This document shows positions 3,311 to 51,728 of a stretch of DNA of 64,000 bases, in pieces (position 1 is the stretch's first letter; each line of letters begins with the position of its first letter). The translations under genes and the position numbers were made by a program. The notes beneath the pieces were generated by a model that saw nothing but the letters and a program-made list of their open reading frames with translations, ran no database searches and was not told where the DNA came from. Source of the DNA: an uncultured virus (IMG/VR IMGVR_UViG_3300042006_000224) (Duplodnaviria; Heunggongvirae; Uroviricota; Caudoviricetes; Schitoviridae); IMG/VR virus record IMGVR_UViG_3300042006_000224; one strand, 5' to 3'.

Positions 3311-3657
3311 TGCCGTACTGGGGATTTGATCATCACGGCTCGCCCGAGGGGGAGGTCGTCGAGGTACAAAGTGCCGGTGGCCGGGTCAATGTGCCAACCT
3401 TTAGGTTGATTCCCGGTAGCTGCAGCAGCCTGGGGTTTCACGTCTTCTGGCGCACCTTTAGATTCACCCGGCGAAGCGTGGCCAGCATTGCCAGCCTGAC
3501 CGGACACTTTCGGTTCTTCGAACAGTTTTGCAGCAGCTTTTGCCAGAGTCGTGGCTTCAGCGCTTTGATTGATGCCATAAAGCATCTTTGCAGCACTTGC
3601 CAGCATATTCGCCGCTTGGGCGTGTGTAAGCAGAGCTTCGTCGCAGATTTGGCACAT
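3307..3657 (-). CDS. Hypothetical protein (starts MCQICDE)
   Basis: ATG at 3657 with AGGA SD upstream; stop overlaps the next start. Confidence 0.7.
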   Translation of the reverse strand: MCQICDEALLTHAQAANMLASAAKMLYGINQSAEATTLAKAAAKLFEEPKVSGQAGNAGHASPGESKGAPEDVKPQAAAATGNQPKGWHIDPATGTLYLDDLPLGRAVMIKSPVRH

Positions 3658-3669
3658 ATTGCATTCCTT

Positions 3670-4560
3670 CTGTTGGTGGGTGTTCTGGAAGTACATCTGC
3701 CGTCGCTTCCCATGGCAACACTCATTCAGAGTGGCAGATGTACCACCAGAACACCATCCAAGTGCAAACCTCTCCGAAGAGTCAGCTTGCGGGGATAATG
3801 TTCCGGGAAAGTTACCAACTTTCAAGTTTATAGGTTATTAGTCACAAACTTGCTCGTTTGTGCATACCGGACTTCGGCGTTCGGTATGTTGTGCTGTGCT
3901 TCGATAACCCCTTCCCATCAGCGGTAAGGGGAACGCAATTGCGGCTAACTTGCTCGCTCGCGTACCACATTTCAATAGATGAATACTTGGGGCTTACTCG
4001 CCCCATGTTTCCTGATTTGTCAGTTAACAATACCCTAGGGGGGTATTGGGGAACACTTTACTCAGCCGGCTGCGCTACATCGCCAGCCTCCTGCCAACGG
4101 CCGGAGTATTCGCAAAGTGTTCCCCAATACCACCTCTACACTTGCCATGTGCAAGCACATCACAGTTACAGAGGGATATTGGGTTCGATCTTATGTTCGA
4201 ACAGACATACCGACTATATGCCAGTCGGGTCAGCAGCCCCTGCCCGGGGTCAGGGTTTAAGAGGCACCTCAGCATTGTTTCTGTACCTGCTGTAGCTAAC
4301 AGCGTTTCTGTGTCCAGAAGAGGTGCCAATTAGGCGGGGTTGTCGCATTGGCCGAGGCCCCACTACGAAATGCTGCGGACACGTACCGGGAACCGGCAAA
4401 CGTATCCTCATCAGCCAACCCCTTAAATCTTTGTAGAGTTTTTCCCAGCAGCTTTTCGCGGTAACAACCGGCGTGGCCACCAAGCCAAGGTACGATCCTT
4501 GGTTTCAGACATACAACAGTTTGGTCTGGTACGAGGCTTTTACAGTGCCAATGTGCGCAA
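3670..4560 (-). ncRNA. Candidate large structured non-coding RNA
   Basis: ~900 nt with no credible ORF and many nested stems, including a perfect 18-bp stem (4042-4059/4114-4131). cUUCGg loop and several G-U pairs on the minus strand. Confidence 0.5.
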
Positions 4561-4582
4561 CTTCCTCTGCTTTTTTACTGGT

Positions 4583-4786
4583 TTAGTCCAGTTCCGAACG
4601 CATCTCGCTTCTAGGAGCCCAACCGTTGCTGGTTTTCACCATGCAGCCGATTGAGCCGCTGAAGCGCACATTGCGTTCAGTTTGGTAGCCGTACCATTCA
4701 CACTTGCTCCAGCCGATGCCGTAGCCGATGGCCACGATAACGAGTACCAGAACGAGGATGGGCAGTACGACTTTACCGTTACGCAC
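4583..4786 (-). CDS. Small membrane-anchored protein
   Basis: N-terminal TM helix; adjacent to the TerB-like gene. Confidence 0.65.
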   Translation of the reverse strand: MRNGKVVLPILVLVLVIVAIGYGIGWSKCEWYGYQTERNVRFSGSIGCMVKTSNGWAPRSEMRSELD

Positions 4787-5233
4787 TCAGGCGCCTTTGC
4801 GGATTTCGAAGTGTTCTTCGCTGAGGCGATAGCCCAGCTCACGCGCGACTTCTTCGATCACCTTGCGCTCGGCCGGCTCGATTTCACCGTCCGACTTTGC
4901 GATGGCCAGGATGTTGAGGACCACGTCTTCGACGTGTTCATCGTTGCCTTGGATGTCGCGCAGCTCACGCAGGATTTTGCTACGGCCGACCAGGAAGTCG
5001 CCATCCAGCAGATCGCTGAAACGACGAATGGTCTTGCCGATTTCGGCGCCGAAGTGCTTCAGGTTTTCGTTACCGGAGATGAGCTTTTCGAGCTTGTTCA
5101 GCTCGTCCTTCTCGATGTCACCATCAGCAGCGGCGACCAGCAGGCCACCGCCAACGATGGCTTCCATCAGGTCACGGTTTTCAACTTTCTTGGCGCCACG
5201 GAACAGCTTGCCAGCGAATTTACCGAACATCAT
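4787..5233 (-). CDS. TerB-family (tellurite-resistance-like) protein
   Basis: Duplicated 'LVAAADGDIEKDE' and 'AIAKSDGEIEPAERKVI' motifs. Confidence 0.8.
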   Translation of the reverse strand: MMFGKFAGKLFRGAKKVENRDLMEAIVGGGLLVAAADGDIEKDELNKLEKLISGNENLKHFGAEIGKTIRRFSDLLDGDFLVGRSKILRELRDIQGNDEHVEDVVLNILAIAKSDGEIEPAERKVIEEVARELGYRLSEEHFEIRKGA

Positions 5234-5700
5234 TCATTCCTTATGAAAGCATCCCGTTCGGCTAAAAGCCGGGTCGGGGCTGCATCAATTCTGGTGCGCA
5301 TGTCTTGGGCACGGGCTACGCCCGCTTCCCATTCTGTGCGATTGAAGTCGTCACCTATATTAAAGGCGTTGACCAGTTGTGACGGGTTCGGGTGGGCAAG
5401 TGCCTGCTCCAAACCAAGGTTGTAAGCTGCGGTTGTCGCCGACGGTACCGGCTCCGGTGAAGTGCCGGTCAGTTCGTACTGGGTCATGAAGCCCACATAG
5501 GCCACGTTGACCAACACAGCCCCTTCTCCCAACTTGCGCTGCTCTTTAGCCGCGGTCAGTTGAGGGATGGTGAGGCTGCGCTTGTCGGACCAGACGTACG
5601 CACTGGCCGGCATATAAGAGCCGACCTGAGGGACAGACCACACCGCAAGGTACCAATGGCGCTTGCGGGCACTCGGGTCTTGTGACGGGTGCTGATACAT
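5230..5700 (-). CDS. Hypothetical protein
   Basis: 156-aa ORF in operon, ATGA overlap. Confidence 0.7.
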   Translation of the reverse strand: MYQHPSQDPSARKRHWYLAVWSVPQVGSYMPASAYVWSDKRSLTIPQLTAAKEQRKLGEGAVLVNVAYVGFMTQYELTGTSPEPVPSATTAAYNLGLEQALAHPNPSQLVNAFNIGDDFNRTEWEAGVARAQDMRTRIDAAPTRLLAERDAFIRNE

Positions 5701-5742
5701 GTTCTACCTCTGGTTTGCCCCAGTTGCCTGGGGCGTGCAGGA

Positions 5743-6105
5743 TCAGTCGAACAGGTTGTCGTCGTCACCACCACCAGCGGTTTCCAGCTCAGCAGTGGTA
5801 GTCACAGGCTCGACCACTGGCGCAACATGCGCAGGCTCTTCGGCAACCGCGACTGGTGCAGTGGCCTGGGCTTCCGCAACCGGCGCAGAGGTGGTCGCGG
5901 TCGGGGTCACGGCGGATTGCTTTGGGGCTTCAGCCACCACCACAACCGGTGCTTCGGTGTCCAGCACGCAGGTCAGTTCTTTGGTGCCACGCTTGAAAGC
6001 GAACTCGGCGGTGACAACGTTCGGATCGAACGCGGTCATGCCTTGAGCTTGCAGGTAAGCGCACAGTGCTTTGGTAACGTCGTTGTGAGTCAGAGTCAGT
6101 TGCAT
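5743..6105 (-). CDS. Hypothetical protein with Ala/Pro/Thr linker and acidic tail
   Basis: 120 aa ending DDDNLFD. Confidence 0.7.
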   Translation of the reverse strand: MQLTLTHNDVTKALCAYLQAQGMTAFDPNVVTAEFAFKRGTKELTCVLDTEAPVVVVAEAPKQSAVTPTATTSAPVAEAQATAPVAVAEEPAHVAPVVEPVTTTAELETAGGGDDDNLFD

Positions 6106-6665
6106 GTTTGCGTTCCTTTATGGAATTGAATGAGTTGTTTGTACTGATTCGTCAATAAACCAGCATAGATCGCGCCCACGGCATCAGCCATGTGCTCAGC
6201 GTCACCCAAATGGATGTCGCCATTGGACTTGCGCGGCCAAGGCGCTTCCGGGTGTTGCTTCACTGCCCAGTCGATCATTTGCTTCTTGGTAGCCGTGCGG
6301 CTGCCATGAGCGGCAAGCTTGACCTCGTTGGGCGTTACTTCAATGAATTGCGCGGAGGCGCGGAGGCTTCCCAGTATTCCAATACAGATCCCAGAACAGA
6401 GAGAGGCTCGGGCGCTTTGACTGCCTTGCGGAATCTCGGCGAAGATCAAGTTCGCAGCCAGGAAAGGCATCACGCCCTCATATAGCTGGTTTGCCGTGCT
6501 CAAGTCTTGTGAGTTCTGGCGGACCTGTTTGCCTTCGAGCGGATTGCTACGCACAACTCGAAGGGTTTTGATGGTCAGCACTCCGGTGTCGATATCGATC
6601 GAACCACCGGCAATTCCCCAGTTTCTGCTGGACGGGTCAAACCCAGCGATACTGAGGCGAGCCAT
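6096..6665 (-). CDS. RuvC-like Holliday junction resolvase
   Basis: 'GFDPSSRNWG', 'AEIPQGSQ', 'KKQMI', 'EHMADA' motifs. Confidence 0.8.
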   Translation of the reverse strand: MARLSIAGFDPSSRNWGIAGGSIDIDTGVLTIKTLRVVRSNPLEGKQVRQNSQDLSTANQLYEGVMPFLAANLIFAEIPQGSQSARASLCSGICIGILGSLRASAQFIEVTPNEVKLAAHGSRTATKKQMIDWAVKQHPEAPWPRKSNGDIHLGDAEHMADAVGAIYAGLLTNQYKQLIQFHKGTQTCN

Positions 6666-7216
6666 TACACGCCAGCGCGTGAAAGGCGACGCTGAAGCAC
6701 GGCAACATAGTCTTTCATCAAGCCATGTTGCTCACGCAGGTCAGCGATCTCTTCGATGGACAAATCCATCCAGTCGAGGACACCAGCATCCAACTTCACA
6801 AGGAATTCGGAAAGACCCATCAGACGAGCGGCAACCTGATACATCTCGGTGATAACACGCTGCACATGGTCAGGAAGCTCACGCTGTTCCTGAGTCAGTG
6901 GGCGATTACCGCGGTGGATGTCTTCAGCCAGCATAAAGCCGGCCAGCGGCCACAGTTGGTCACGCGCATCGCGCATTGCCAATTGTTTGGCCAACTCTTC
7001 GTCGTAGTTCTCCGGAGAGACGCTACCCAGGTTCTTGCCGACGACCGTGAGGCCGTTATGCAGGGTCAGGACGCAGAGCAGGATCGAAGGGTCGATCTTG
7101 ATTAGCTCAGTGGTCTTGATCATGGCATCCAGCGCGGCCGGTGTAACACGCGGCGCAGTGGTGAGGCCTTTGGCTTGAATCTTAGATTCCAGCGCTTGTT
7201 CAGCGGATACAGACAT
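6665..7216 (-). CDS. Gp49-like (PF13876-type) domain fused to a helical C-terminal domain; candidate anti-defence nucleotide sponge
   Basis: 'APRVTP...CVLTLHNGLTVVG...VSPENYDEELAKQLA...LWPLAGF' followed by 'HVQRVITE...EQHGLMKDYVAVLQRRL'; AGGAG SD before the ATG at 7216. Confidence 0.65.
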   Translation of the reverse strand: MSVSAEQALESKIQAKGLTTAPRVTPAALDAMIKTTELIKIDPSILLCVLTLHNGLTVVGKNLGSVSPENYDEELAKQLAMRDARDQLWPLAGFMLAEDIHRGNRPLTQEQRELPDHVQRVITEMYQVAARLMGLSEFLVKLDAGVLDWMDLSIEEIADLREQHGLMKDYVAVLQRRLSRAGV

Positions 7217-7260
7217 GGACAGCTCCTGAAAGGGGCCGGTTACCCGACCCATGGTGGTGT

Positions 7261-8043
7261 TCAGTCGAACAACGAATCGACTTCGGCGCCGGAAGCGTCG
7301 GTTGGGGTACCAGCAGGGCCGGCACCGCCAGCTTCTGGGACCAGATTTTCCTTCTTGACCTTGTCGATGACCTTACCGGCGTTGGCTTCGAGCCATTTCG
7401 GGTAGAAGTCAGCAACCGGAGTGGAACCGGACTGCTTGGCTGCACGCAGCTCAGCAATGGTGCACTTGTTGTCAGGGTAGAAGATTTTGCCGATTTCGTT
7501 GGTGAAACGGGTGATCGGTGCGCCAGTTGCGTCACAAACCGGCAGGTAGTCGTTGCCTACCTTTTTGGTTTTGTTTTCTTCGACCTTCAGCAGACCGAGG
7601 ATGAACTTCTTGCCGATCAGCTCGACGGCCATTGGCACTTCAGTCGGCACGTCGGTTTTGGTGTCGAAGTTGCGCAGCTTGACGATTTTGGTTTCGAAGG
7701 TCAGCGCGTTCAGCTCTTTCTTGGCGCAGAACATCGCGATGGCGTTCATGTTGTTGAAGCCAGGCAGGTAGGACTTCTTGCCGTCACGTTCGTAGTACGG
7801 CTTGTTGCCTTTGGCATCGCCCGAGGTGACCCACTCGGTGAACTTGAACTTGCGACCGTCCGGACCTTGAACTTCAAGGTTCATGGAACCGGCGCCGCCT
7901 TTCGACTTGCCTGCATAAGCAGACAGCACGGTGACTTCATAGGCGTTGGAATCCCAGACGAAGCTGCCGCCCAAGCGGTCGCTGTCGGTTTCGATGGATT
8001 CGTTGGTGGTGTTAGCGGTGTTGGCAAAAGGGTTGAGGCTCAT
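7261..8043 (-). CDS. ssb: Single-stranded DNA-binding protein (N4 gp45-like)
   Basis: 'DRLGG', 'YLPGF' motifs, acidic SLFD tail, conserved position. Confidence 0.8.
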   Translation of the reverse strand: MSLNPFANTANTTNESIETDSDRLGGSFVWDSNAYEVTVLSAYAGKSKGGAGSMNLEVQGPDGRKFKFTEWVTSGDAKGNKPYYERDGKKSYLPGFNNMNAIAMFCAKKELNALTFETKIVKLRNFDTKTDVPTEVPMAVELIGKKFILGLLKVEENKTKKVGNDYLPVCDATGAPITRFTNEIGKIFYPDNKCTIAELRAAKQSGSTPVADFYPKWLEANAGKVIDKVKKENLVPEAGGAGPAGTPTDASGAEVDSLFD

Positions 8044-8105
8044 GGTGTTGCTCCAAAATTATGAGAAGGAAATTCACAACAGCCCACGGAGGGGGCCACA
8101 GTTAC

Positions 8106-8819
8106 TCAGTTATAGTAGGAATCGAGACGGTCGATGACCATCTGGATGTCGTTGTCGATAAACGTTTCGTTGTCGCCCCAGAGCATCATCGGGCCACGGA
8201 TACGGGTGTTGATCGTGTCCTTGGTGACCTGAGTCTGGAAGACGTGTTTGAAGCCGACGACTTTCTCGCGGTCGGTGATCTTCAGCAGGTCGTTCTCTTC
8301 GGTGAGGTCGTCCAACTTGATCTTCTGGCACATCAGCACCATGGAGAAGTAGGCTTCGATGCCTTGGTTCTTCAGGGAGCCGGCGACCGGGATCGCGGTT
8401 TCCATGACCATGGCGGTTTCGTTGTACACGTCGAGGACGTGAGCCAGGAAGATGACCTTCTTGGAGGACTTGGCGACATCGACCTGCATGGTCGAGCGGA
8501 AGAATTCAGCGAAGTTGCCCCACGCGGCACGGCCGTCAACGGCGGTGCGAACGTACTGGCTGATGTACATATCAAGCCAGAAGGTCAAGGTGTCAACGAT
8601 GATGACCTTGATGTGGTCCTGCTTCTCAGCCCACGCGAAAGCTTCTTTCACTTGGTTTGGGTTGGTCACCGTCTTTTGGGTGAACTTCGCCGGGAAAGGC
8701 AGTCGCTTGCCCGCTTCACAGTTCAAATACAGAACCGATTCGGGATCGCGCAAATTGCGCAGGGAAGCAGACTTGCCACTGCCCGACTTGCCGCAAATGA
8801 GCGCCAAATGTTCGTTCAT
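8106..8819 (-). CDS. AAA/Sak4-like ATPase (N4 gp44-like)
   Basis: Walker A GKSGSGKS; Walker B IIVD. Confidence 0.8.
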   Translation of the reverse strand: MNEHLALICGKSGSGKSASLRNLRDPESVLYLNCEAGKRLPFPAKFTQKTVTNPNQVKEAFAWAEKQDHIKVIIVDTLTFWLDMYISQYVRTAVDGRAAWGNFAEFFRSTMQVDVAKSSKKVIFLAHVLDVYNETAMVMETAIPVAGSLKNQGIEAYFSMVLMCQKIKLDDLTEENDLLKITDREKVVGFKHVFQTQVTKDTINTRIRGPMMLWGDNETFIDNDIQMVIDRLDSYYN

Positions 8820-8873
8820 AGGAATACTCCTGAATGAGATCACAAAAGCCCCGGGACGGGGCCAGTGTGAAGG

Positions 8874-11030
8874 TTAAGGGCGGGCTGCCAGCTCTTTACC
8901 GACAGTGACCATGATAGAGCCCAGGATCTCGGCTTCGGACAGCTTGTCGGCCAACTTATCGTTGAGCGACGTGACGCAGTCCTTGATCTCCGCCCAGTTC
9001 TTCCCGGCTTCGATCAACAAACGGGCATAGCGGTGCAGCATGACATTACGGTTGCCATCACCCGTGTTGTTGATGATCCAGCGTTCCAGATTGTCCATTT
9101 GCTGCTGGGAACCCAGCCGCTGAAGACGTTCTTCGTTTTTACTGGTTTTCGGGATGAAGGGCAGGACATCAAACAGCTCGCCCTCGGTTTGCTCGAAGTG
9201 AGCGCCATGCGACATCCACTTCTTGCTCCGGTGAGTACAGGACTCATCCACTTCGAACGGCAGGGATTCCAGCACGTTCTTCATGAATTCCTTGTATTCC
9301 TTCGCGTCCATTTGCAGGACGTAGTTCGTCGGAAGAACAATGCGGAACCGGTTTGCATCGTCGGTGTGACGCTTGGTCGTGTAGTAGATCGCCGAATAAT
9401 CTTTCATCAGCATCTTCGCCGTGGACAAGTTCATCGTCCCGTCGATATCCAACACGATCATGTTGAAGCCGGGGATACAGGTATCCTCGGTACGATGGCC
9501 GCCGTGAACATGGTGATTAAGCCAGTGCAGGTCAGTTCCTGTGACAAGACGTTCCAGTTGAGTCCATGGGGCAGTCTTGTTTGCGTAACCATGCGCCGGG
9601 TGTTCACCGGCACCGCCACGGGCATACGACACCACCATCTTGGTCAGGTCAGTGACCTTCAGCTTCTCGCCGCGCAGGAACTCAATCCCGTCGGTGAAAG
9701 CCTTCTTGATGATGACGTTGTTCTTGTAGCCCCAGGCGATGGCCATCTTGACCATGTCGGCCCGCGATGCCTGACTGCCCTTGTAATAGGGCAAGTCTTG
9801 CATCAGGTCCGGTTCGGTCACTTCCGTGCCACAGTTGCCCAGGTAGTTCGCCAGCTTGACGTATGGGCGTTCACGAGACAGCAGAAGCTCGAAGGCCTTA
9901 CCGCTTTCTTCAGCCAGTCGAACTGCTTGGTAGAAATGCGTCTCCGTCAGCTCCGGGGAGCCGTCGATGAATGCATAGGCACCAGCAGCCTTCAGGGCTT
10001 TGAAATATCGGTGAGAGATTTCCGCTTTGCGTTGTTCTTCGTGTTCGGGCAGGGCATCGGCTAAACGCTCGCAGTCGATCTTGTACTGGATCACCAGCAA
10101 GCTGGTTTCCTTGGTCATGGTCAACACAGTATTCATGTTGTGCGAATCAGCCAAGTAACCCAGTTTTTCGCTGAAGTTTTCCACGAACGTGGACGAAACC
10201 TTGTTCGTCATGCGGTCGTAGATTTCTTCAGCCGACAGGGTCAGATCGCGGGTGCTTTCTTTGCCGTAGCTGAAGAAACAGCGGCGAGCGTAGCCGGTAT
10301 CGAGCAATGAGATCAGCTCGTCTTCCGTCTTGCCACCATCGAGCAATTTCGACGGTGTACCGAACATCATGAGGTTCGTTGGCGTGTTGCCGTCGATTTC
10401 CTCGTGACGGACGTTCTCGGCAGTCACTTTGGTGATCTTCTGGCGAATGCCGCCCATATCGAACAATTCCAGCAGTGTTGTGAGCACTTCGGAACTGGAC
10501 GACAGGTTGGAACCGATTTCGTCGATGATCAGGTTGACTGCGCCCGCATCTGCGAGCAACAGCTTGTGACGCATCTGCTTTACCGCAGCCGGGGTACCGG
10601 AGTCGAAGCTATAAACCAGAGGACCAAGGGAAGCGAACTCCTTCTTGATTTTCTCCAGCTCGAAGTCGTATTCCGTCGAATCCCGGGATGAACGCCGCAG
10701 CGCCAGCTTTTCGAGGTGCGGTTCAGCAGTGAACGGGAAGTTTTCGAGGAAACGGGTACGGAATTGGTTGGTTATCTCCTTTTCCAGAATGTTCGTCGAG
10801 AAGCCTTTACCGGCACCGGATGTGGCGAGGTTCAGCGCGTACATGTTGACCGGGATGTCACCCCGATCATGGGTGCGGATCAATACCCGCATCTGTGAGG
10901 CAATCATGCACAGGTGGAACGTCGTCAACACACGGAAGAACAAATGGTTCGAACTCTGTGTCTTTTCACACAGAATGCGCACCACGTCCTCCACTTCGGG
11001 GTTATACGACATGTCTTCGACAGCTTTCAT
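8874..11030 (-). CDS. DNA primase (N4 gp43-like)
   Basis: 718 aa, 'SGAGKG' P-loop, 'LDIDG' AEP motif, C-terminal 'GNRN' PriCT-like. Confidence 0.8.
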   Translation of the reverse strand: MKAVEDMSYNPEVEDVVRILCEKTQSSNHLFFRVLTTFHLCMIASQMRVLIRTHDRGDIPVNMYALNLATSGAGKGFSTNILEKEITNQFRTRFLENFPFTAEPHLEKLALRRSSRDSTEYDFELEKIKKEFASLGPLVYSFDSGTPAAVKQMRHKLLLADAGAVNLIIDEIGSNLSSSSEVLTTLLELFDMGGIRQKITKVTAENVRHEEIDGNTPTNLMMFGTPSKLLDGGKTEDELISLLDTGYARRCFFSYGKESTRDLTLSAEEIYDRMTNKVSSTFVENFSEKLGYLADSHNMNTVLTMTKETSLLVIQYKIDCERLADALPEHEEQRKAEISHRYFKALKAAGAYAFIDGSPELTETHFYQAVRLAEESGKAFELLLSRERPYVKLANYLGNCGTEVTEPDLMQDLPYYKGSQASRADMVKMAIAWGYKNNVIIKKAFTDGIEFLRGEKLKVTDLTKMVVSYARGGAGEHPAHGYANKTAPWTQLERLVTGTDLHWLNHHVHGGHRTEDTCIPGFNMIVLDIDGTMNLSTAKMLMKDYSAIYYTTKRHTDDANRFRIVLPTNYVLQMDAKEYKEFMKNVLESLPFEVDESCTHRSKKWMSHGAHFEQTEGELFDVLPFIPKTSKNEERLQRLGSQQQMDNLERWIINNTGDGNRNVMLHRYARLLIEAGKNWAEIKDCVTSLNDKLADKLSEAEILGSIMVTVGKELAARP

Positions 11031-11048
11031 TGATTTCTCCGTGTTTGA

Positions 11049-12032
11049 CTACAGGACCAGATCGCCGCACGCAATGAGTGCGTCTTTCTGTTTGCATGCG
11101 AGGAAGCCCGCGCAATATTTGCATCCTGTGACACCGCCGCGTTTGGTGACTACGACGCCACCCTTTGTGGCGACAAGAAGATCAGCATCGGCTTTGTTGT
11201 CAAAGTTTTTGGTAGATCGGGCACCGGGTTCGTGTGCTTTCTCCGGTTTGGCGAAATAACGATAGGTGTCCGGCTTTCTCCACAGATCCTTGTCGGAACA
11301 GGGAGGCATATCTTCTTCCGGCGCATGCTCAAGGTCAATGAGCTGCTGAACCTTGCCTTCGACATAGACTTGCGTCTCTTCGAGCGACAGGAGCTGCAGC
11401 TTGCGCGTATGCATGCGGGCAGGTGGGTAATTGTCCGGGTTCATGTTGCGATCCCGGCCATTCCAGTCGGTGAACTGGAATGTGAGGTTCATCCAGTCTT
11501 TCGTTACCAATTCTGGGTTGAGCCAGCGGTACATGCTGCCTTGCAGGACGTAATTCTCGAAGTCTGCGTTGAGGTACTTCCATACCGACGTATTCTTCAA
11601 ATCCTCGACGGCACCGTCACCGATGAAGTCAAACTTCCCGGATACGGTGATGCCAAGCACGTCCTTCTTGCTGCGGATTTCGGTGTACACCGGAATGATG
11701 CCACCGGCCGCAACTTCTTCTGCAGATGGGTTAACCCGGACCTTGCGCGCAACGCCGGGAGGATTACCCAGAGCAATCAGGGTATCGACCAGCTTGGGCG
11801 ACTTCCACGCTGCCTCAAAGGCGTCATGGATCGCGGTACCGTTACTGCTCGGGATCATGTCCGCAACGTCCTGAGACAGCATCCCAGGCGGTACACGGCG
11901 GGCCAAGATCACTTGCTTCACTGGTTTCAGCAGTGTGGTGACCGACAGGCCGGCTTCTTCCCGGTCGTACGTCTCATGCGCGAGGTAAACCTGTGCAAAG
12001 AGTGACAAACCAGTGTTGTTGGTGAATTTCAT
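11049..12032 (-). CDS. PD-(D/E)XK exonuclease (N4 gp42-like)
   Basis: 'GTAIH', 'GKFD...EDLK', C-terminal CxxC..C. Confidence 0.75.
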   Translation of the reverse strand: MKFTNNTGLSLFAQVYLAHETYDREEAGLSVTTLLKPVKQVILARRVPPGMLSQDVADMIPSSNGTAIHDAFEAAWKSPKLVDTLIALGNPPGVARKVRVNPSAEEVAAGGIIPVYTEIRSKKDVLGITVSGKFDFIGDGAVEDLKNTSVWKYLNADFENYVLQGSMYRWLNPELVTKDWMNLTFQFTDWNGRDRNMNPDNYPPARMHTRKLQLLSLEETQVYVEGKVQQLIDLEHAPEEDMPPCSDKDLWRKPDTYRYFAKPEKAHEPGARSTKNFDNKADADLLVATKGGVVVTKRGGVTGCKYCAGFLACKQKDALIACGDLVL

Positions 12033-39706: not shown

Positions 39707-40960
39707 TCATGACAAAGCGTAATTACTGTGCAGAATCATCTCTGCCAGTTCGTCAGCGTCGTGTTGACCGTCGTAAGTCGGGGTAACACCGGTGATTTGC
39801 TCATAGATGTCCTCAAGTACACGCGCACGGGCCAGATCGGCCATGATTTGTGCATAAGTGAGACGCATCCAGTTGCAATCGTTGGCATGGCACTTGAACT
39901 CATCGTGCACAGTCACGATTTCGAAGGGAACACGAGCCAGTACCTGTGAAGCCAGATGGATCATCTGAGCGATGTGTTTATCGGCCATGTATTGCACGTC
40001 GTCGCAGGTCAGGTAGCTGAACAGGCGAGCGGCCGGCATTTCGCAACCGCCCCAGACAGCAATGAGTTGCTGAGCCATGGTGGTTGCTTCATGCAGGTCT
40101 TGTTCCTCACGTATACCCTTGGCGCGCATGTCTTGCTCATATTGCAGCTCGTATAGTGCGTTCTTCACTGCGACGAAGTTGTAGTTGCAGCGCAGCTCCA
40201 TTTCACGAAGCAGGTAGGCGTCCAGTGAGTGAGTCACGTTGGCCACCAGCTTCAGGTCAGTCTTGGTACCCTCGTTGATGTAATAGTCATAGGTGAACGT
40301 AGCACCGTCCAGCTCATCGACCTCGACGCGCTCACCTTCCACCTTCTGCATCACCTTGATGCGCACGTTGAAGTTGTCCGGGCACACCCAGCGGTGTTCC
40401 AGCGCATACGGCTGCCATGCCAGGCGCAGGTCACCCAGCAGCTCTACGGCTTTCGGGGCTACTTGGCACAGGCCAGCGTAGAAGGCATCCAGCTCTGGCG
40501 TGTCACGTCCGAAGATCTCCCGGGGCGTAGCCTGGGAACCGTACAGTGCAGTCATGGTGGCCTGCTTGGCATCGTTGCGGGAGATGATCAAGTCACCTTC
40601 CAGCATGTCCGAGGCAGCCGCAGTCACCATGGTGTAGGCATCGTTACGCAGGTTGGGGTCGATCAGGTTGGTGGCCAAGCAGCCGGCCAAGCACTTAGTC
40701 ACCACAGACATGATGGACATGCCGGAGCAGGTGGCATCCAAGCCAACCATGTGGCCGATGGCTTCACCGCGGCAGGCACGGTACAGGGCATTAACGGCCT
40801 TGAGGTACAGCGGACGTTCTTTACTGCTGGTTTCGAGGTACGGCAGACGGTTGAAGTTATCCTTCACCCACTGAATTCTCTGTTCGAACAGAAGTTTATC
40901 TAGCCCTGCTTGGTTCCCAATGTCTATGCACAGAAACTCGTAAGCGGAATACTTTTTCAT
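39707..40960 (-). CDS. RNA polymerase II subunit 2 (N4 gp16-like, T7-type C-terminal half)
   Basis: 'LDATCSG' motif A, 'RNDAKQATMTALYG' motif B, 'VHDEF' motif C. Confidence 0.92.
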   Translation of the reverse strand: MKKYSAYEFLCIDIGNQAGLDKLLFEQRIQWVKDNFNRLPYLETSSKERPLYLKAVNALYRACRGEAIGHMVGLDATCSGMSIMSVVTKCLAGCLATNLIDPNLRNDAYTMVTAAASDMLEGDLIISRNDAKQATMTALYGSQATPREIFGRDTPELDAFYAGLCQVAPKAVELLGDLRLAWQPYALEHRWVCPDNFNVRIKVMQKVEGERVEVDELDGATFTYDYYINEGTKTDLKLVANVTHSLDAYLLREMELRCNYNFVAVKNALYELQYEQDMRAKGIREEQDLHEATTMAQQLIAVWGGCEMPAARLFSYLTCDDVQYMADKHIAQMIHLASQVLARVPFEIVTVHDEFKCHANDCNWMRLTYAQIMADLARARVLEDIYEQITGVTPTYDGQHDADELAEMILHSNYALS

Positions 40961-42087: not shown

Positions 42088-43017
42088 TCACAACTGAAAC
42101 TCAGGTGGAACGTCGGTAACGACTTGTTTATGGGAGAACTCCAGCATGGCCTTCTTGTAAGGCGCACCTTGAGTTGAGATGTGATAACCGTTGGCGTAGA
42201 TACGCCCACGTTTATCGTATTTGTGGTGCAAGTAGAACTTATTACCCTGTCCTGCCATCAACAGGTAGAACTCATGTGATTGTCTCTTCTGATTCAACCA
42301 CATGGTTTGTTTCTCGGGAGAATCCAGCTCACTGTTCGGGTCTTCCTCAACAGTGCTCAAGAACTCCAGATCGAGCGACAGTGCGACTGAATTCTTCGAA
42401 TCCAGTACATCAAGGCACACATCGTCGCTGTGATGACCTTTATTCAGGATGACCGAGTCCTGCCCTATGGTCAGGTACGGCGTATCCTTGTTGTGGCGCA
42501 GCTTCTTCGGCGGGTGCACCAGAGGCGGCAGATAGGCGCAGTTGGCGATGTACTCTTCCAACTGAAGGGACAGGGTGATGTTGCTGATGATGTTCCAGCT
42601 CCCGAAGCGGTTAGCCTGGGTCAAGTCGAACAGATCCGTCTCACACAACACGGCCGTTATCTCGGCAATGGTGGTGATGCTGGACTTCTTGTCGTCCCAG
42701 CCCAAGACACCGGCCATACGGGCGGTGAAGCTGGTGAACAGTTCTTCGTGCTGGCAGTAGGCCGACGCCACGATGACATCAATGACCAGCTCACGCAGGT
42801 CCATGCCCCGCAAGCCAGAGATGCGGATGTTCTTGGACTCATAGCTGAAGGTCCGGGCGACCCACTCAGTGAGTAGTTCGACACCCTTATCCAGCAATGG
42901 CTGCACTTCTACGTCGGCAAGGACGTAGTCACGCATGTACTTGTCGATATGATGACGGGCAAAACGGTACTCGTTTGCACGTTGCATATCGTCGGTCAGC
43001 ATAAGGGTAGGTTTCAC
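42088..43017 (-). CDS. RNA polymerase II subunit 1 (N4 gp15-like)
   Basis: 'YLPPLVHPP', 'KYDKRGRIY..GYHI.TQG..YKKA'. Confidence 0.92.
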   Translation of the reverse strand: MKPTLMLTDDMQRANEYRFARHHIDKYMRDYVLADVEVQPLLDKGVELLTEWVARTFSYESKNIRISGLRGMDLRELVIDVIVASAYCQHEELFTSFTARMAGVLGWDDKKSSITTIAEITAVLCETDLFDLTQANRFGSWNIISNITLSLQLEEYIANCAYLPPLVHPPKKLRHNKDTPYLTIGQDSVILNKGHHSDDVCLDVLDSKNSVALSLDLEFLSTVEEDPNSELDSPEKQTMWLNQKRQSHEFYLLMAGQGNKFYLHHKYDKRGRIYANGYHISTQGAPYKKAMLEFSHKQVVTDVPPEFQL

Positions 43018-43027: not shown

Positions 43028-46000
43028 CTAGATTACGATCAATGCAGCCATTTTAATTGCATCAGGTACTTTATGGGCGTAAACCCAAGTAGAGCAGTGA
43101 GATGGGTTACCTCTGTGCAAGCAATCCCAGTATTCTTGTGAATTTGTGTAGCGATACTTGAATATCTGCCCTTTTTGGTAATTTGAGTTTACGTAATGCG
43201 GTTCATCATTGAATGAATCAACAACGGACACACTACCGTCAATATTCAGTATAAATATCAGCATAAGCCTCCTAGTTTACTAACAGTGCTGCAAGTTTGA
43301 TTTCTTCAGGCATATCTTTAGGCAGTCTGGCAGACCAGTAGTTATCGACGTACACATGCATTTGATTGTCCGGGGTAATACGATAAATCTTAGTATTGCA
43401 GCATCCTTGTAGGGTCACAGCTCGTTGGGTAGCCTCCCAAATGCCTACAACCTCGAAGTTCAGCTTCTTGCGGTGCATGTACAGCAGTGTATGGGCCATA
43501 AGTCACCTAATTTGTGCAGGTATGCACGACTTGTACAATTTCAGGTAATTGCTCGACGTTAATCGGCAGAAGTGCGTCGAAGTAACTCATCACGTCACTC
43601 TGACGGGTGCCACGTTGTAGAACCCGCCATTGCAATCCTTGAGGCTCAAGGAACCTGACATATAAGTCACCGAAGGGGAATTCAGAGGCTAGAACCGAAG
43701 AGGTTGTAGCCCAATGTTCTTTAAGCAGGCGAATCTCGCCTTCAACTACGTGAACTATCAGTGCCATGTATACCTCCGACAAGTGCCAACATTTTGATCG
43801 GTTCTGGTAATGCCATCGCGGCAGACCAGCCAATCCCATCAGGGTCTGAATATCCCCAACGGGATTGATCCTCCCAGTAGAAATAGTTGAAGTACCACTT
43901 CATTTGCAAAGAGTTTCCTTTAGAAAAACTCAGACGCATCTCAGGCCGGCCGCAGAATACACAGCCAGCCTTGTGTTTGTAGAACTCATCCCAATGTGGG
44001 CGTGAGTCTGCACTTTCAGTTTCAAAGACCGCTACTATCTGATCCTTGGTTTCGTTTAGGACTACCCAGATGCTGTTCATGGCGCCACCAGTTGCATCAT
44101 CAGGATTACGTCAGGCACTGCTGATAAACCCACAGCAGTGAACTTATGCCGCTTGTTTGCGTAACAATATTCGCCTTTGTACCAACGGCGTGCATCATCT
44201 TGCAGATACACCACACAGAATGGGTCATTTTTATGTGCTCCCTCGCATACTTGCATAAATGCGCTGAAAGAATCCCGAGAACTTACTTCGGGAACGTTAT
44301 TGACGATCAGGAATAGAATTCCCATAGATACCGGACAAATGTCTGGTGCCCAAGCATAGTTTCTCATTCGAGCATCATCCTCGTAAGTTTGACGATCTCC
44401 GGCACACGGTTAGTGGCCAACCACTCTTTGATCTGTACTCGCCAGATCAACCACATTTCACGGTTATCGGTGGTCATGTACCAGTGATACAGGGTGATTT
44501 CTGCGTTGACTGCGGCAGTGGCGAACATATATTCACCAATGCCATCAGCTACGGTGGATGCTTCCGCACTAAGCACAGAATCCTGCACTTTGTTGTAAAC
44601 GATGGTGATAGCTTTCATGACAGCATCATCATGGCGACTTTCACCACTTCTGGTATATCCGCGTCTACAACGTAGCTGTACCCTTGTTTTTCAGGTGTCC
44701 ACACTAACCATTGGGCACCATTGAACGAATACACGTCCATATCGTCACGAAGGTACGGAATGTTCAATATCTGAACATCAAGCACCAGTTCCTGCGTATT
44801 ACGGCACCAACCGACTTTCTTTATGCTCATGACAGTAACATGTACGCAAGACGCACAGCCTCCGGTACTTCGTCAGGCTTGAGGGGAACAGCGGTGTAGC
44901 CCGGATATTCGTGAGCGACTTCATAACGGAACCAACGATCTTTGACCTTGATCCCGTACAGCTGCCGATACGGAGAGCGAGGGGCTGACCATGTTTTAGG
45001 GAACGACACGACCTCGCGATCAATCGTGTCATAGACGGCAAAGAACGAACTCATGAGGCCACCATTACGGCCATTCGCACCAGCTCAGGTACGTCAGACT
45101 CCTGTAAGAACATTCCGTCACCATGGAAGCGCTCAAGAACCCAAGACAGGCTCTGACCGTGGTAGTAGGTGTAAGTCCAGTGGGTATCGAACAGGCTGCA
45201 ACTGACATCGCCACCGTCGACCACCTGTTGGGTGACGTAGTCCCAAAGGATCTTGGTACCGGTCACAGGCTTCCCGAAGATGTCGTTCATTTTACTGGTT
45301 TCCAGACTTGGATGTTACCCGGCAGAGGATCGATGAGCCCCTTGAGCAACCACTCAGGTTCGGTGTACCCGGGCCACTCCAGTGCATAGGTCTTGCCACG
45401 GTTGGCCAGGGCCACCGCGGTCAAGTCATGCAGCGCCTTGGACACCAAGCCGATGTTCACCCCGTTGCGGGGAACCTGCATGTGTTGTAGGATGCCCACC
45501 TTGCCAGAACAGCGCAGATAGAACTCACCTCCGTCACCGCACGTCTCCTTGATCCACGCTCCCATCTTCACCTTTAGGGTAGGGTATTTAAGACCCAACA
45601 CCCCGGCCAGACCATTGAGCATAATAAGCTCCCCTGTCTCAGCCTTCAGCTTACTTCCTACACAAATGATGAAATGATCGACTTTGTCGAAGACTTCCAT
45701 CATATCTCCGTAAATAATCTTGTTCATCGCATAATCTCCGCAGTTCGTACAATTTGAGGAACGCTATTCAGCAATTCAGGTTCCCATCGTGCATAAGCGA
45801 TACCCGCAGCAGGGATTGAGTACCAATCTCCATCTCGGGCACGCCACCACAGGTGACAACCTTCATAAGTAGCAACAACCTTGTGCATGTCGGCAATTGA
45901 CCAATTTGCTTGATCTACAAGGATGCCATCGACGTAATCACCGTCCCGGGTGACGTGATACATGAGCATAGCCATGACTTACCTCAACAAGTAGGCCACC

Positions 46001-46585
46001 AACACCACATCAGGCGGTGTTGCAGGTTTCCAGATGGAAAAGCGTATGTCGTTGGTGGCCATCCAAGCCCAACCAAACACAACACGGGTCCATACCCTAC
46101 AGTCAGGGTAATTCTTCGATTCCATCCGATATCCGAACGTATCAGCAGAATCTAGGTGAATAACACCTAGAAGTTCACCATCACGCTCGACATACCAGAC
46201 GGGAGTATCAACCTGCACAGAGCATTGCCACCTGAAGCTCAGGCGGCACCTCATCACGCGGAACTGTCATGAATGATGGACGACGGTACAAAGTACCGAC
46301 ATTCGCATTCTTCCAGCGTATTTCACGCCAAACATGGTCAACACCGGGACGGTAGAACATAACCCGGCATTTACCGAACTTGACGAACGCTTGACGTGCA
46401 TAGACAGCCGCATTGAAATCAGAACGCTCTTCAATATGCTTTACATCACCACTGTGGAACACAGAGCACAGAACTGAGTCTTTGACGTATGCGCGCTTCA
46501 CTACGTTGTTGTTAATGTTCATAGGATCGTGAAGATCTTCCATAGAGTTGAGTGACATACCGGAGTATTGCCCAATTTGGCTCAT
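43028..46585 (-). repeat. Tandem array of 12 small genes sharing a C-terminal VPExV(K/R)xAxLL motif
   Basis: ORFs at 43028, 43272, 43507, 43742, 44077, 44364, 44615, 44827, 45051, 45724, 45979, 46208. Confidence 0.85.
45287..45727 (-). CDS. Macro-domain-like (ADP-ribose binding/processing) protein
   Basis: 'IIYGDM', 'GELIMLNGLAGVLGLKYP', 'ALEWPG' follow the macro-fold pattern, degenerate. Confidence 0.5.
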   Translation of the reverse strand: MNKIIYGDMMEVFDKVDHFIICVGSKLKAETGELIMLNGLAGVLGLKYPTLKVKMGAWIKETCGDGGEFYLRCSGKVGILQHMQVPRNGVNIGLVSKALHDLTAVALANRGKTYALEWPGYTEPEWLLKGLIDPLPGNIQVWKPVK

Positions 46586-47941
46586 ACAGGCTCCAAGACA
46601 CCCAAAGGAGTCATGACATGGGTCATTGTGGTGCCAGTCCACACACATGCCCGCATAATGCGGAACATAGCGAATGAATTGACATATGCTTGCAACTCTT
46701 CGAGGGATTCAGCATGGTGCAGCACACGCTGCCAGCCAGAGCCCTCAAGATGTTTCAGATCGACCGCAAGACACAGCATGCGTGGCACTGTGGTGTACTT
46801 CTCACTACCTTTCTGGCTTTGCACCAGCTCAACGAGCACATGCACGATGAATGCGAGCATTGTCAGGATCATCAACACATCAATGATTGTTTGCATGGTT
46901 ATGCACCTTGTTTGTGAACGGAGCGCAGACGCCCGGTTTCGTTGAGAACAGCTACCTTGAACGCTTTACGGATGCTAAGAATCCGCATTTTGTCAGCAAG
47001 CACGTTATTGAACGCCTGCTGCATGGTGTTCTTACGGAACAGCAGATCATCGAAGTCTTGCTGTAGCCGATTGCGCGCAGCAACACTGTCGTCATACATA
47101 CTGTACAACTTGGTGATGGTATCAGCCTGATTGTCGATAGACTTCATCAGGAACTTACGCATTTGCTCACGCCCCTTCGCAGCGCCCTTACGAACGCCAC
47201 GAGTGTGCAGATTCTTAGCTTTCTGGCTTATAGCTGGATCAAGTGCCTGAGTTGCTGCCGATGCGCACAACATGTGCAGCATTTTCATAGGATCATCGCC
47301 ATGTTTGGAGAAATCCCAGAGGAAATCAACTGTCATGAGTTCAACGATAGCAGCGCGATACTTGTCCGCGAACTTCCAGTTGTTTTCGTACACAGCAGCC
47401 TGATTCTTGGCATCTTCCAGCAGTTCACGCCATTTGGCATCCACAGCTTGCAGGTGGTCACGTTGCAAGGCATTGGCATGCACTTGCTGAGCTTCTTGAC
47501 GGCAATAGCCCCACATTGCCCCTACAACGAGGCAGAACACTGCACCGATAGCACCCCAGCAATACAGATTAATCATTTCCATGGTTTAAACTCCGTAAAG
47601 GTTCAATAAGATATAGATAGCTGCAAACAGGCAGCAGAATTTGGTCATTTGTGCAGCAACGAGCTTCACCACGGGTTATTCCCCCGAGGTCCGCAGTTAG
47701 GCTGAGCTTTCGCCTTATGATGGCGATTGCGCTTACTTCTGGTCTGTTTCACACGCGTCCAGTCGATCATGTCAAACATACCGTAGGATTTGCCCATGCC
47801 TCTCGCTGCTTCGAATAGCACGGTCCCCTCTCGCACACCAACTGCGTAAACTGCAGTCATGTAGTCCTCAAGATGGGAGAAATCGATACCGGTCACAAAT
47901 GCCGGGTACTTCCGTGGACTCAACATACTTGCCTCCAGCAA
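46582..47941 (-). CDS. Three hypothetical early genes (46582-46896, 46899-47582 TM plus coiled coil, 47666-~47860)
   Basis: Co-oriented ORFs. Confidence 0.55.
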
Positions 47942-47982
47942 AAAGGATGGCCACCACCCCCAGAGGGATGATGGCCGTCGGG
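47940..47982 (-). terminator. Terminator after drc
   Basis: GATGGCCA...TGGCCGTC stem next to an A-run. Confidence 0.6.
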
Positions 47983-47983: not shown

Positions 47984-48316
47984 TTACGTCAGGTCGAGCA
48001 TTGCTTCTTCGTCGGTGCGGGTTGGGTTGAAGCTGAATTCCAGCTTGCTCACCACTTCCGCCAGACGACGCGCTTTCTCAGCCGCGATCTCTTCAGGCGT
48101 GGTGTACTTCTCATCGCCCGGGCGAGTCATACCGAGGTACGCCGCCAGTTGCTCGTGAGAGCGATTGCCCTCAACGAAACGGATGGCATCAACACGGATC
48201 GGCGCACCAGCTTTGGTGGCCATGTTCAGGTTGAAGAAGCCGAGGGTCTTCTTCACGGAATTGCTGCTTTCAGCACGAGCAGGGGCAGCAGCGGTGTTTT
48301 TACGTTCAACAGCCAT
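47984..48316 (-). CDS. drc: Drc-like ssDNA-binding RNAP II cofactor (functional counterpart of N4 gp2)
   Basis: MAVERKN...FFNL..ATKAG..IR...HEQL...VSKL...TRTDEEAMLDL resembles Pseudomonas phage LUZ7 Drc as recalled. Confidence 0.7.
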   Translation of the reverse strand: MAVERKNTAAAPARAESSNSVKKTLGFFNLNMATKAGAPIRVDAIRFVEGNRSHEQLAAYLGMTRPGDEKYTTPEEIAAEKARRLAEVVSKLEFSFNPTRTDEEAMLDLT

Positions 48317-48373
48317 GGGAAATACTCCAGAATAATGGAACAGAATGAGATTTTGTGGCAGATGATTGCCTTT

Positions 48374-48389
48374 ACAGGGCCGAAGGCCC
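48374..48389 (-). promoter_or_regulatory. Candidate vRNAP hairpin promoter
   Basis: ACA-GGGCC-GAA-GGCCC on the template (+) strand upstream of drc. Confidence 0.65.
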
Positions 48390-48408
48390 AGGATCTTACG
48401 GGTGACGC

Positions 48409-48669
48409 TTAATTGGGCACAACAACGCCCAAATTGACAGTGAAGCCTGCATAAATGCATGCAACGTACAGAGCATCGAAGGAAATCTTCCATTCTTGCT
48501 CACGACAGATGAAACCGACCAGATTGTGACCAATGCCGAGAATATCGGCCGCTTCCTTCTGCGACCACGCATTATCTTTAATGATTTTGCGCAATTCACG
48601 AGCAAGCAGTTCTTTCTGGTGACCTAGGCACTGCCTTGCGAAGCAATTGGTGTGTTGGGTTTGTTTCAT
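48409..48669 (-). CDS. XRE-family HTH protein
   Basis: 'WSQKEAADILGIGHNLVGFI'. Confidence 0.7.
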   Translation of the reverse strand: MKQTQHTNCFARQCLGHQKELLARELRKIIKDNAWSQKEAADILGIGHNLVGFICREQEWKISFDALYVACIYAGFTVNLGVVVPN

Positions 48670-50458: not shown

Positions 50459-50686
50459 TTAACTCAGCATAGCAGCAAGTTTAATGACATCAGGCAGCGC
50501 ATCATCACTGATTTGCTTGGGACACACCTTTGGAGTGTCGGGTTTAATACAGGACCAGCGGAAGTTGTCATTCCACCAGTAATAGGCAACACCACCGTAA
50601 TCATGCAGTGCATCGATCACATCCTCATGCATTGCCAAGCATTCGAACGCTTTAACACTGCCATCAGACAACAACATGTATTCCAT
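50459..50686 (-). CDS. Dispersed member of the VPExxxxAxLL family
   Basis: Ends ...DALPDVIKLAAMLS; GAGG SD. Confidence 0.7.
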   Translation of the reverse strand: MEYMLLSDGSVKAFECLAMHEDVIDALHDYGGVAYYWWNDNFRWSCIKPDTPKVCPKQISDDALPDVIKLAAMLS

Positions 50687-51552: not shown

Positions 51553-51712
51553 GGTGTATCTCCAATCGATTGGTAAGGAAGGGCACCGAAGTACCCCTCA
51601 CATAGCCGAAGGCCTAGGTTAATAGATCCTCTACGTAATGGATGATAGCTAGCGTACAGAGCGCAGTGATCAGCATAGTAAGAGTCCATGGACAGTACAG
51701 GAGTGTACCGAT

Positions 51713-51728
51713 ACAGGGCCGCAGGCCC
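51713..51728 (-). promoter_or_regulatory. Candidate vRNAP hairpin promoter
   Basis: ACA-GGGCC-GCA-GGCCC, near-identical to the 48374 copy. Confidence 0.65.

Follow-up and report, generated by a model that had tools for sequence, protein, structure and literature searches.

A family of small paralogs with a shared C-terminal helix motif next to the RNAPII genes of an N4-like phage

Results

Thirteen small genes at the RNAPII locus

The 64,000-nucleotide stretch of an uncultured virus analysed here (IMG/VR record IMGVR_UViG_3300042006_000224, hereafter the window) was assigned to an N4-like (Schitoviridae) phage by a PHROG scan of 51 window open reading frames (ORFs). It carries a family of 13 small genes, all on the minus strand, whose products of 71–116 aa share a C-terminal motif; 12 of them lie within 43028–46648 and the thirteenth is detached at 50459–50686. 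All 13 ORFs reported in a first-pass annotation made from the sequence alone were confirmed on the minus strand, with their C-termini as written there. The RNAPII small-subunit gene begins 10 nt downstream of the first member. Members were named P1–P9 and P11–P14, and three starts were trimmed: P3 to ATG 43767, P13 to ATG 46558, which matches the annotated gp39 of Pseudomonas phage phCDa, and P14 to ATG 50686. In the following list, bits are scores on a position-specific scoring matrix (PSSM) of the 13 tails, and fractions of nine give the genomes that carry the respective orthogroup.

P1, 43028..43264, minus strand: 78 aa; tail VPDAIKMAALIVI; 29.3 bits; 6/9; last gene before the RNAPII small subunit
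P2, 43272..43499, minus strand: 75 aa; tail MPEEIKLAALLVN; 29.1 bits; 8/9
P3, 43507..43767, minus strand: 86 aa from an internal ATG, ORF open to 43839; tail LPEIVQVVHTCTN; 21.2 bits; 9/9
P4, 43742..44080, minus strand: 112 aa; tail LPEPIKMLALVGG; 25.0 bits; 9/9
P5, 44077..44367, minus strand: 96 aa (or 82 aa from 44325); tail VPDVILMMQLVAP; 26.6 bits; 9/9
P6, 44364..44618, minus strand: 84 aa; tail VPEIVKLTRMMLE; 29.5 bits; 6/9
P7, 44615..44830, minus strand: 71 aa; tail IPEVVKVAMMMLS; 33.1 bits; 9/9
P8, 44827..45054, minus strand: 75 aa; tail VPEAVRLAYMLLS; 29.2 bits; the member modelled
P9, 45051..45290, minus strand: 79 aa; tail VPELVRMAVMVAS; 27.9 bits; 7/9
P11, 45724..45975, minus strand: 83 aa; tail VPQIVRTAEIMR; 22.7 bits; 7/9
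P12, 45979..46257, minus strand: approximately 91–92 aa, start uncertain, overlaps the end of P13; tail PPDVVLVAYLLR; 24.4 bits
P13, 46208..46558, minus strand: 116 aa, ORF open to 46648; tail VPPELQVAMLCAG; 23.6 bits; 8/9
P14, 50459..50686, minus strand: 75 aa; tail LPDVIKLAAMLS; 28.4 bits; detached, in a second transcription unit

The tail of P3 is the most divergent of the array, and in P4 the motif is followed by a 9-residue extension that overlaps the start of P3. The description of the locus as a tandem array holds for the 12 members of the consecutive region, but their run is interrupted by one 146-aa non-member (45287–45727) with a predicted macrodomain fold. The coupling of many of the genes by ATGA overlaps was borne out by seven such junctions (P11/macrodomain, macrodomain/P9, P9/P8, P8/P7, P7/P6, P6/P5 and P5/P4). 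The block is also AT-richer, as had been noticed, with a GC content of 0.45–0.53 over 43–47 kb versus approximately 0.54 for most of the window.

A C-terminal motif conserved at the protein level

The motif shared by the 13 C-termini reads [VLIM]-P-[DE]-x-[VI]-[KR]-[LMV]-A-x-[ML]-[LMV]. As a regular expression derived from the hits themselves, and hence circular, it matched the 13 members and nothing else among the 870 stop-to-stop ORFs of at least 40 aa. With a 12-position PSSM built from the 13 tails, the members scored 21.2–33.1 bits and the best of the other 857 ORFs 10.5 bits; when each paralog was left out of the matrix in turn, its score was 5.1–23.7 bits. These leave-one-out scores were compared with those of shuffles of the same protein: ten of the 13 paralogs exceeded all 2000 shuffles. 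The scores of P13, P11 and P3, the three most divergent tails, were equalled by 2, 5 and 16 of 2000 shuffles, respectively.

Across the 12 tail codons, first, second and third positions carried 0.71, 1.25 and 0.39 bits of information on average. The third positions are thus near random, which places the conservation at the protein level and rules out recent gene conversion; a DNA or RNA element as the explanation of the motif was ruled out on the same grounds. We conclude that the family and its motif are real and selected at the protein level.

One predicted fold across divergent bodies

Upstream of the tail, the paralogs are hardly related in sequence. Hidden Markov models (HMMs) built from the bodies alone in a leave-one-out scheme recovered no held-out paralog at E<0.2, and decoys scored equally. 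The mean identity between window paralogs was 0.15 for the body versus 0.32 for the tail, and profile–profile comparison of tail-less orthogroup alignments linked 3 of 78 pairs (P11–P12, 83%; P3–P1, 63%; P14–P1, 33%; all others below 6%).

An AlphaFold2 model of P8, computed with a 30-row family alignment, reached a mean predicted local distance difference test (pLDDT) of 80.3 and a predicted TM score (pTM) of 0.67. It comprises strands at residues 4–9, 14–17, 30–37, 40–46 and 53–58 and a helix at residues 65–74, with block 61–70 as the most confident part (pLDDT approximately 90); beta-rich N-terminal parts, as suggested from the sequence, are thereby supported. In a Foldseek search of BFVD, whose models were made independently of ours, the P8 model matched six phCDa proteins (TMq 0.62–0.76, probability 0.97–1.00) and three proteins of phage Littlefix (TMq 0.55–0.63), followed by weaker matches to phage phi176 (0.59) and Caulobacter phage CcrBL9 (0.52). 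Assigned by length alone, with 96 aa being ambiguous, the six phCDa proteins are gp39, 40, 42, 43, 44 and 46, the orthologs of P13, P11, group n1, P7, P5 and P3. As the model agrees with independently predicted structures, the bodies are predicted to share one fold. The claim of little similarity except the tail is therefore correct for the sequences (body HMMs, 3 of 78 pairs linked) but not for the fold (TM scores of 0.62–0.76), and the structure prediction that had been proposed as a check for a shared fold came out in favour of one.

Relatives were sought by several routes. None of the 13 members was matched in a PHROG hmmscan (E≤0.01), and a profile of the 13 paralogs yielded one chance hit (E 1.8) among PDB sequences. 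A Pfam scan of 85 members touched 17 families, each with one or two members only, as expected by chance; PF18066 (Phage_ABA_S) was rejected because P1 alone scored 14.7 bits (E 0.05; gathering cut-off 27 bits), one of 85 members at E≤1. In the ESM Atlas, the best match of P8 (0.75, DUF6718) stayed under the threshold for a lead. The top VIA-align matches of the P8 model were the CdiI immunity protein 5t87_E (Z 4.3), the SsgA-like protein 3cm1_A (Z 4.2) and the polo-box 6mf4_A (Z 3.8), covering model residues 1–75 with 55–60 residues aligned at a root mean square deviation of 2.9–3.9 and 5–8% identity. These folds resemble the P8 model in having an antiparallel sheet with a helix across it, but the scores lie within the chance range (Z of approximately 8 being well above background) and give no sign of homology or of a function in common. 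The anti-CRISPR folds tested, AcrIF9/AcrIF13, matched weakly in VIA-align (7chr_A, Z 3.1; 7fi4_A, Z 2.8).

The C-terminal helix in the predicted domain

Tail statistics were compiled from 88 unique tails, with positions counted from the Pro. This Pro never varies; it is followed by Asp or Glu in 71 and preceded by Val, Leu or Ile in 77 of the 88. Hydrophobic residues occupy positions −1, 2, 3, 5, 6 (Ala in 61/88), 8 and 9, while positions 1, 4 (Lys or Arg in 60/88), 7 and 11 are polar or variable; on a helical wheel, the conserved hydrophobic positions span approximately 220 degrees. The conserved amphipathic C-terminal helix of the first-pass annotation is thus supported. The Trp noticed upstream of the motif was also recovered: at least 90% conserved and approximately 23 residues before the Pro, it sits in strand 4 of the P8 model.

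Position −6 is Ile, Val or Leu in 62/88 tails without any gap and corresponds to the end of strand 5 in the P8 model. The gap-free spacing indicates that a turn with a constant length of five residues, and not a linker, joins the helix to the sheet. In 99 of 108 members, the C-terminus lies 11–12 residues past the Pro. From the sequence pattern and the pLDDT values, together with the near-invariant Trp in strand 4, we infer that the tail is the core helix of a small α+β domain, opened by a Pro-Asp/Glu cap and buried against the sheet.

These features do not fit the earlier view, in which a constant, detachable tail was attached to variable bodies unrelated to one another. Such a tail would be expected on a flexible linker of variable length and on structurally unrelated bodies; what was found is a fixed 5-residue connection, TM scores of 0.55–0.76 between the P8 model and nine phCDa and Littlefix proteins and, with block 61–70, a helix region at pLDDT of approximately 90. 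The first-pass annotation had itself named a helix simply buried in a common single-domain fold as the outcome that would count against its proposal, and the data come close to it, with a common fold recovered and burial suggested by the sequence pattern and the pLDDT values. The final residue differs among the paralogs (I, N, N, S, P, E, S, S, S, R, R, G, S) and position 11 is variable, so that the degron considered as another role of the tail fits poorly.

Distribution and gene order of the family

Among 50,697 phage records, the nearest relative of the window was Pseudomonas phage phCDa (Schitoviridae, Shizishanvirus; host P. fluorescens), with approximately 80% DNA identity over the RNAPII region and an 86.7% identical RNAPII small-subunit protein. 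In the available part of PMC12943162, phCDa appears merely as a metagenomic bin. A megablast search of the array against the same records returned a 225-nt stretch of phCDa, in the macrodomain gene, as the sole match.

Syntenic loci were anchored on the RNAPII small subunit (RNAP1). Eight IMG/VR loci with 86–99% identical RNAP1 carried 9, 10, 11, 12, 12, 13, 13 and 16 family ORFs (at least 12 bits) on the RNAP1 strand within 10 kb upstream, some of the contigs being truncated. The 109 proteins of the window and these loci (starts assigned) fell into 21 BLAST orthogroups in nine genomes. Each window paralog has an orthogroup of its own, and gene order was identical in all nine genomes. P3, P4, P5 and P7 are present in 9/9 and P2 and P13 in 8/9 genomes; the variable orthogroups are P1, P6, P8, P12 and eight groups without a window member, and P14 occurs in one to three tandem copies among relatives. 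Bodies within orthogroups are 36–65% identical, a conservation that points to paralog-specific functions.

phCDa has 13–14 copies, at least two of them unannotated (9685–9894 and 11660–11890 of the phCDa locus). One unannotated phCDa copy overlaps gp40/gp41 in another frame without a good start codon and is possibly a decaying P12 copy. In Littlefixvirus, the genus that follows in relatedness (Littlefix, 98PfluR60PP; RNAP1 62% identical), approximately 6–8 copies with the tail variant ...P..[IVL][KQS]M..L[IV]GA. flank the same macrodomain gene; eight of these ORFs had family-HMM E values of 7e-6 to 2e-3 among 1312 ORFs. The search for copy-number variation in Schitoviridae that the first-pass annotation had called for thus found it, with 9–16 copies in the eight loci and approximately 6–8 in Littlefixvirus.

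The family HMM and the PSSM found no clear member in the early regions of eight other Schitoviridae, all with RNAPII (Litunavirus PA26, Luzseptimavirus PA152, Cbunavirus Horatius, Efbeekayvirus P184, P. syringae phage Arace01, Zicotriavirus ZC08, Achromobacter phage phiAxp-3 and E. coli phage 24-32N). Borderline scores were obtained for ZC08 gp78 (6206–6454 of the locus; tail LPEFVRALIVIYDI; family-HMM E 0.007) and for PA26 gp18 (E 0.009), which is flanked immediately by the macrodomain gene on one side and RNAP1 on the other. A helix-like C-terminus of the type P-x-x-hydrophobic-K/R, preceded by a Trp, was seen in ZC08 gp78, in PA26 gp18 and gp20 (5569–5877 and 6834–7094) and in PA152 at 10933–11256. 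Single RNAP1-adjacent genes in other Pseudomonas N4-like genera may represent ancestral, low-copy forms of the expanded family.

The 13-paralog profile gave 19 hits at E≤1e-3 among 1.84 billion representative proteins. Small proteins with 48–92% identity to the 21 orthogroups accounted for 17 of them, the remaining two (4211 and 1210 aa) were judged not credible, and no fused form was among the hits. The 13 ORFs are ancient paralogs, arranged in a constant order immediately upstream of the gene for the RNAPII small subunit. To the extent that sequence comparison can tell, the family is restricted to Pseudomonas N4-like phages and expanded in a lineage that infects the P. fluorescens group.

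The embedded macrodomain gene

The non-member within the array is the following gene.

45287..45727, minus strand: macrodomain of the TARG1/DarG type, 146 aa, with ATGA overlaps to both neighbours

Its product matched phrog_335 (annotated 'phosphatase', E 1.4e-6) and no Pfam family at E≤1; its Atlas neighbour cluster (score 0.95) has Macro in 11% of members. The AlphaFold2 model was of moderate quality (pLDDT 73.7, pTM 0.70) and gave six Foldseek matches in PDB at E≤1e-3. Four of the six are macrodomain entries (E 2e-4 to 1e-3; TM 0.55–0.65), namely TARG1/C6orf130 (2lgr, E 2e-4) and DarG (5m31, 5m3i, 5m3e; TM 0.60–0.65), and two are designed serine hydrolases (4kyb, 4k0c); more macrodomains followed just below the threshold. 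TARG1 and DarG match the model in fold, with 12–17% sequence identity to the protein, which is a macrodomain by its predicted fold. The gene precedes RNAP1 at an equivalent position in Shizishan-, Littlefix-, Lituna- and Luzseptimavirus, and its product could possibly counter ADP-ribosylating defences such as DarT.

Transcription signals and genomic context

The promoter hairpins of the N4 virion RNA polymerase (vRNAP) are of the kind with a 5-bp stem and a 3-nt loop. Elements of this appearance and terminator-like hairpins were located around the array.

48374–48389, 51600–51615 and 51713–51728, no strand assigned: 16-base element ACAKRGCCGMAGGCCY, the only three exact matches in the 64-kb window
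47949..47976, minus strand: terminator-like hairpin with 12 pairs and a T run, between a 'toxin'-annotated gene and the unit of the main array
51031–51010, minus strand: strong terminator-like hairpin

The ACAKRGCCGMAGGCCY element holds the hairpin GGGCC-GAA-GGCCC, with a 5-bp stem and a 3-nt loop. N4 vRNAP uses single-stranded hairpin early promoters, according to the available part of PMC3715699, and the three copies are candidates for early promoters of vRNAP. No promoter-like hairpin belongs to the main array itself, which continues directly into the RNAPII genes, whose products are needed before middle transcription; this arrangement suggests that it would be transcribed early by read-through.

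The third promoter-like hairpin (48374) and the strong terminator-like hairpin enclose a short unit of its own with a small minus-strand gene (47984–48316, the C-terminal part of ORF 47984–48493) that matches phrog_6271 'toxin' (E 4.9e-8). It is also conserved in PA26, Horatius, Littlefix and 98PfluR60PP, where it carries the annotation 'toxin'.

The PHROG scan placed the following polymerase genes in the window.

90–3086: virion RNA polymerase, C-terminal part
39707–40960: other RNAPII subunit (phrog_2051, E 2.5e-137)
42088..43017, minus strand: RNAPII small subunit, N4 gp15-like (phrog_2166, E 5.5e-104)

Genes for an N4-type primase, exonuclease, DNA polymerase, Dda-like helicase, SSB, portal and large terminase were also identified. 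The interval between the vRNAP and primase genes (approximately 3300–8840) holds a RuvC-like gene (6096–6665, phrog_159), SSB (7261–8043) and several ORFs without family. It matches in position the 'anti-signalling hotspot' of N4-like phages (Bes1 RuvC-like, Acb4, Sequestin, Tad) described in the accessible part of a 2026 preprint (10.64898/2026.06.04.730250).

Discussion

A proposed diversified single-domain family

With moderate confidence, we favour the view that the array encodes a lineage-specific, diversified family of single-domain early proteins that interact with the host, in takeover or counter-defence, and whose tail forms part of the fold core. Of this view, the family itself, its predicted fold, the synteny, the variation in copy number and the distribution are shown by the data, while early expression, burial of the helix and the binding of targets in takeover or counter-defence are proposed. 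Each protein would consist of one domain of approximately 70–85 aa with an N-terminal β-hairpin, three more strands, one of them bearing the near-invariant Trp, and a three-turn C-terminal helix. As the hydrophobic core helix with its Pro-Asp/Glu cap, the tail would be the last part to diverge, while strands and loops would have drifted past sequence recognition and would carry the specificity of each paralog. The genes would be expressed from the vRNAP-driven early region, translationally coupled and together with the DarG/TARG1-like macrodomain and the RNAPII genes. Most likely, each paralog would bind, neutralise or redirect a different host protein, with duplication, loss and divergence tracking the defence and physiology repertoire of fluorescent Pseudomonas hosts. 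The position of the array upstream of RNAPII in the early region and the gain and loss of members (9–16 copies) speak for this view.

Several observations weigh against it. In body-profile comparisons, 75 of 78 pairs showed no similarity. The paralog alignment given to AlphaFold2 could have biased the P8 model, though the BFVD models are independent of it. Foldseek found no match of the P8 model in PDB at E≤1e-3, and the best Z among 48,161 chains in VIA-align was 4.3. Burial of the helix is proposed from pLDDT, the pattern of the sequence and structural alignments over the full length. Within 10 of 12 orthogroups, conservation is higher in the tail than in the body (P8, 0.82 versus 0.58; P2, 0.78 versus 0.39), an excess that surpasses the strict need of fold maintenance and would also fit a shared binding function. 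A strong terminator-like hairpin stands between the nearest promoter-like hairpin and the array, and the early timing is one that we infer. Finally, the known anti-defence hotspot of N4-like phages is at another site, namely between the primase and vRNAP genes, in the accessible part of 10.64898/2026.06.04.730250.

Alternative explanations

The excess conservation of the tail, within orthogroups as well as between paralogs, is what an adaptor library would lead one to expect, in which each body has its own target while all members dock through the shared helix on one common partner (phage ATPase, RNAPII, host protease or chaperone). The strictly C-terminal position of the motif (end 11–12 residues past the Pro in 99/108) and its retention across two genera, with the ...M..L[IV]GA variant in Littlefixvirus, agree with this proposal, and phage-encoded protease adaptors exist, as exemplified by an SPO1 protein acting on ClpCP (bioRxiv 10.1101/569657, as far as its accessible text goes). 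However, the helix follows a conserved strand-end residue by a fixed 5-residue link instead of a flexible linker, it is the best-predicted part of a compact model, and its wide hydrophobic arc would be insoluble if exposed. Moreover, the common fold of all paralogs means that the bodies are not modular. We therefore consider the adaptor library unlikely, and less likely than a single domain with a core helix. A helix that becomes exposed when needed, or is displayed together with the conserved Trp, and plugs the 9–16 paralogs into one phage or host machine appears distinctly unlikely; if it did so, the array would be an adaptor library that retargets one enzyme (protease, ATPase or RNA polymerase) to many host proteins.

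Oligomerisation, with the C-terminal helices pairing or bundling into homo- or hetero-oligomers of co-translated paralogs, seems rather improbable. The seven ATGA overlaps imply coupled production, possibly at fixed ratios, the hydrophobic arc of approximately 220 degrees is wider than a usual helix–sheet interface needs, and a five-stranded sheet in a protein of 75 aa would otherwise leave one of its faces exposed. On the other hand, three turns are short for a stable helical bundle, and the copy sets vary between genomes (9–16), which speaks against one obligate hetero-complex.

The array lies directly upstream of the RNAPII genes, with which it is probably co-transcribed, and borderline single-copy relatives adjoin RNAP1 in Litunavirus and Luzseptimavirus. 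Its products could thus be phage-internal cofactors acting on the phage's own transcription or replication, e.g. by binding of single-stranded DNA or RNAPII, and not on host targets; N4-like phages use small ORFan cofactors such as Drc, according to the available part of PMC7145618. The weak fold echo to SsgA-like 3cm1 (Z 4.2) points the same way but is within noise. Core machinery normally needs no 9–16 diverged paralogs that are gained and lost, and the family is absent or undetectable in most sampled Schitoviridae genera, all of which have RNAPII; we consider such a role highly improbable.

A tail acting as degron or membrane-targeting amphipathic helix is barely plausible: it would agree with a hydrophobic helix at the extreme C-terminus, but ssrA-type degrons have conserved last residues and those of the paralogs are not conserved, MinD- and FtsA-type membrane helices have a basic face where the tail has two conserved charged positions, one acidic and one basic, and an extension of 9 residues is tolerated by P4 orthologs.

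Implications

Approximately 3.4 kb of a phage genome of approximately 73 kb (size taken from relatives) are given to this one undescribed family. A gene order kept across two genera together with a varying copy number are hallmarks of genes that meet the host directly, and the adjacent DarG/TARG1-like macrodomain hints at counter-defence against ADP-ribosylation. The family has no Pfam or PHROG relative and no convincing one in PDB. Any function found, be it a target, an inhibited defence or a partner, would be new, and the 21 orthogroups offer a ready natural panel for screening. The case also calls for caution in annotation: a conserved terminal motif on small proteins that cannot be aligned otherwise can be all that is still recognisable of a common fold, and it need not be a functional tag.

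Comparison with known systems

As the first-pass annotation had stated, no described function was found in the literature searched: the accessible texts on the phCDa and Littlefix genera, on N4-like early genes and on LUZ7/LIT1 hold no description of the 13-copy family. Tandem arrays of small early ORFans as such are already known. Phage LUZ7 (Luzseptimavirus) has a cluster of 29 small genes that was reported without any recognisable feature in the available part of Ceyssens et al. 2010 (PMC3715699). Like the array studied here, it is a long, lineage-specific tandem run of ORFans, there of approximately 60–70 aa, in a Pseudomonas N4-like phage; it differs in its place, which adjoins the right terminal repeat (PMC3715699, same part).

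In the LUZ7-type phage PA152, approximately 22 consecutive ORFs of 60–70 aa (locus 1–4356) show, by eye, a C-terminal motif of their own, ..W..[VA]W...[VA]..[VI]. This run probably corresponds to the LUZ7 29-gene cluster and would be a second paralog array with a conserved terminal helix, apparently unrelated to the 13-copy family. In the PA152 locus, PSSM scores stayed below 12.5 bits, with the best ORF outside the small-gene array, and the family HMM gave no hit at E<0.05. The motifs of the two arrays differ, and the arrays are likened by layout.

To our knowledge, host-takeover modules such as that of SPO1 are not made up of one paralogous family. They are likewise clusters of small, early, mostly ORFan genes, thought to hit varied host processes, as described for the 26-gene SPO1 module in the accessible text of bioRxiv 10.1101/569657. 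The 13-copy family, its fold and its degree of expansion appear undescribed, and unlike the members of host-takeover modules, those of the array share one predicted fold and one C-terminal motif.

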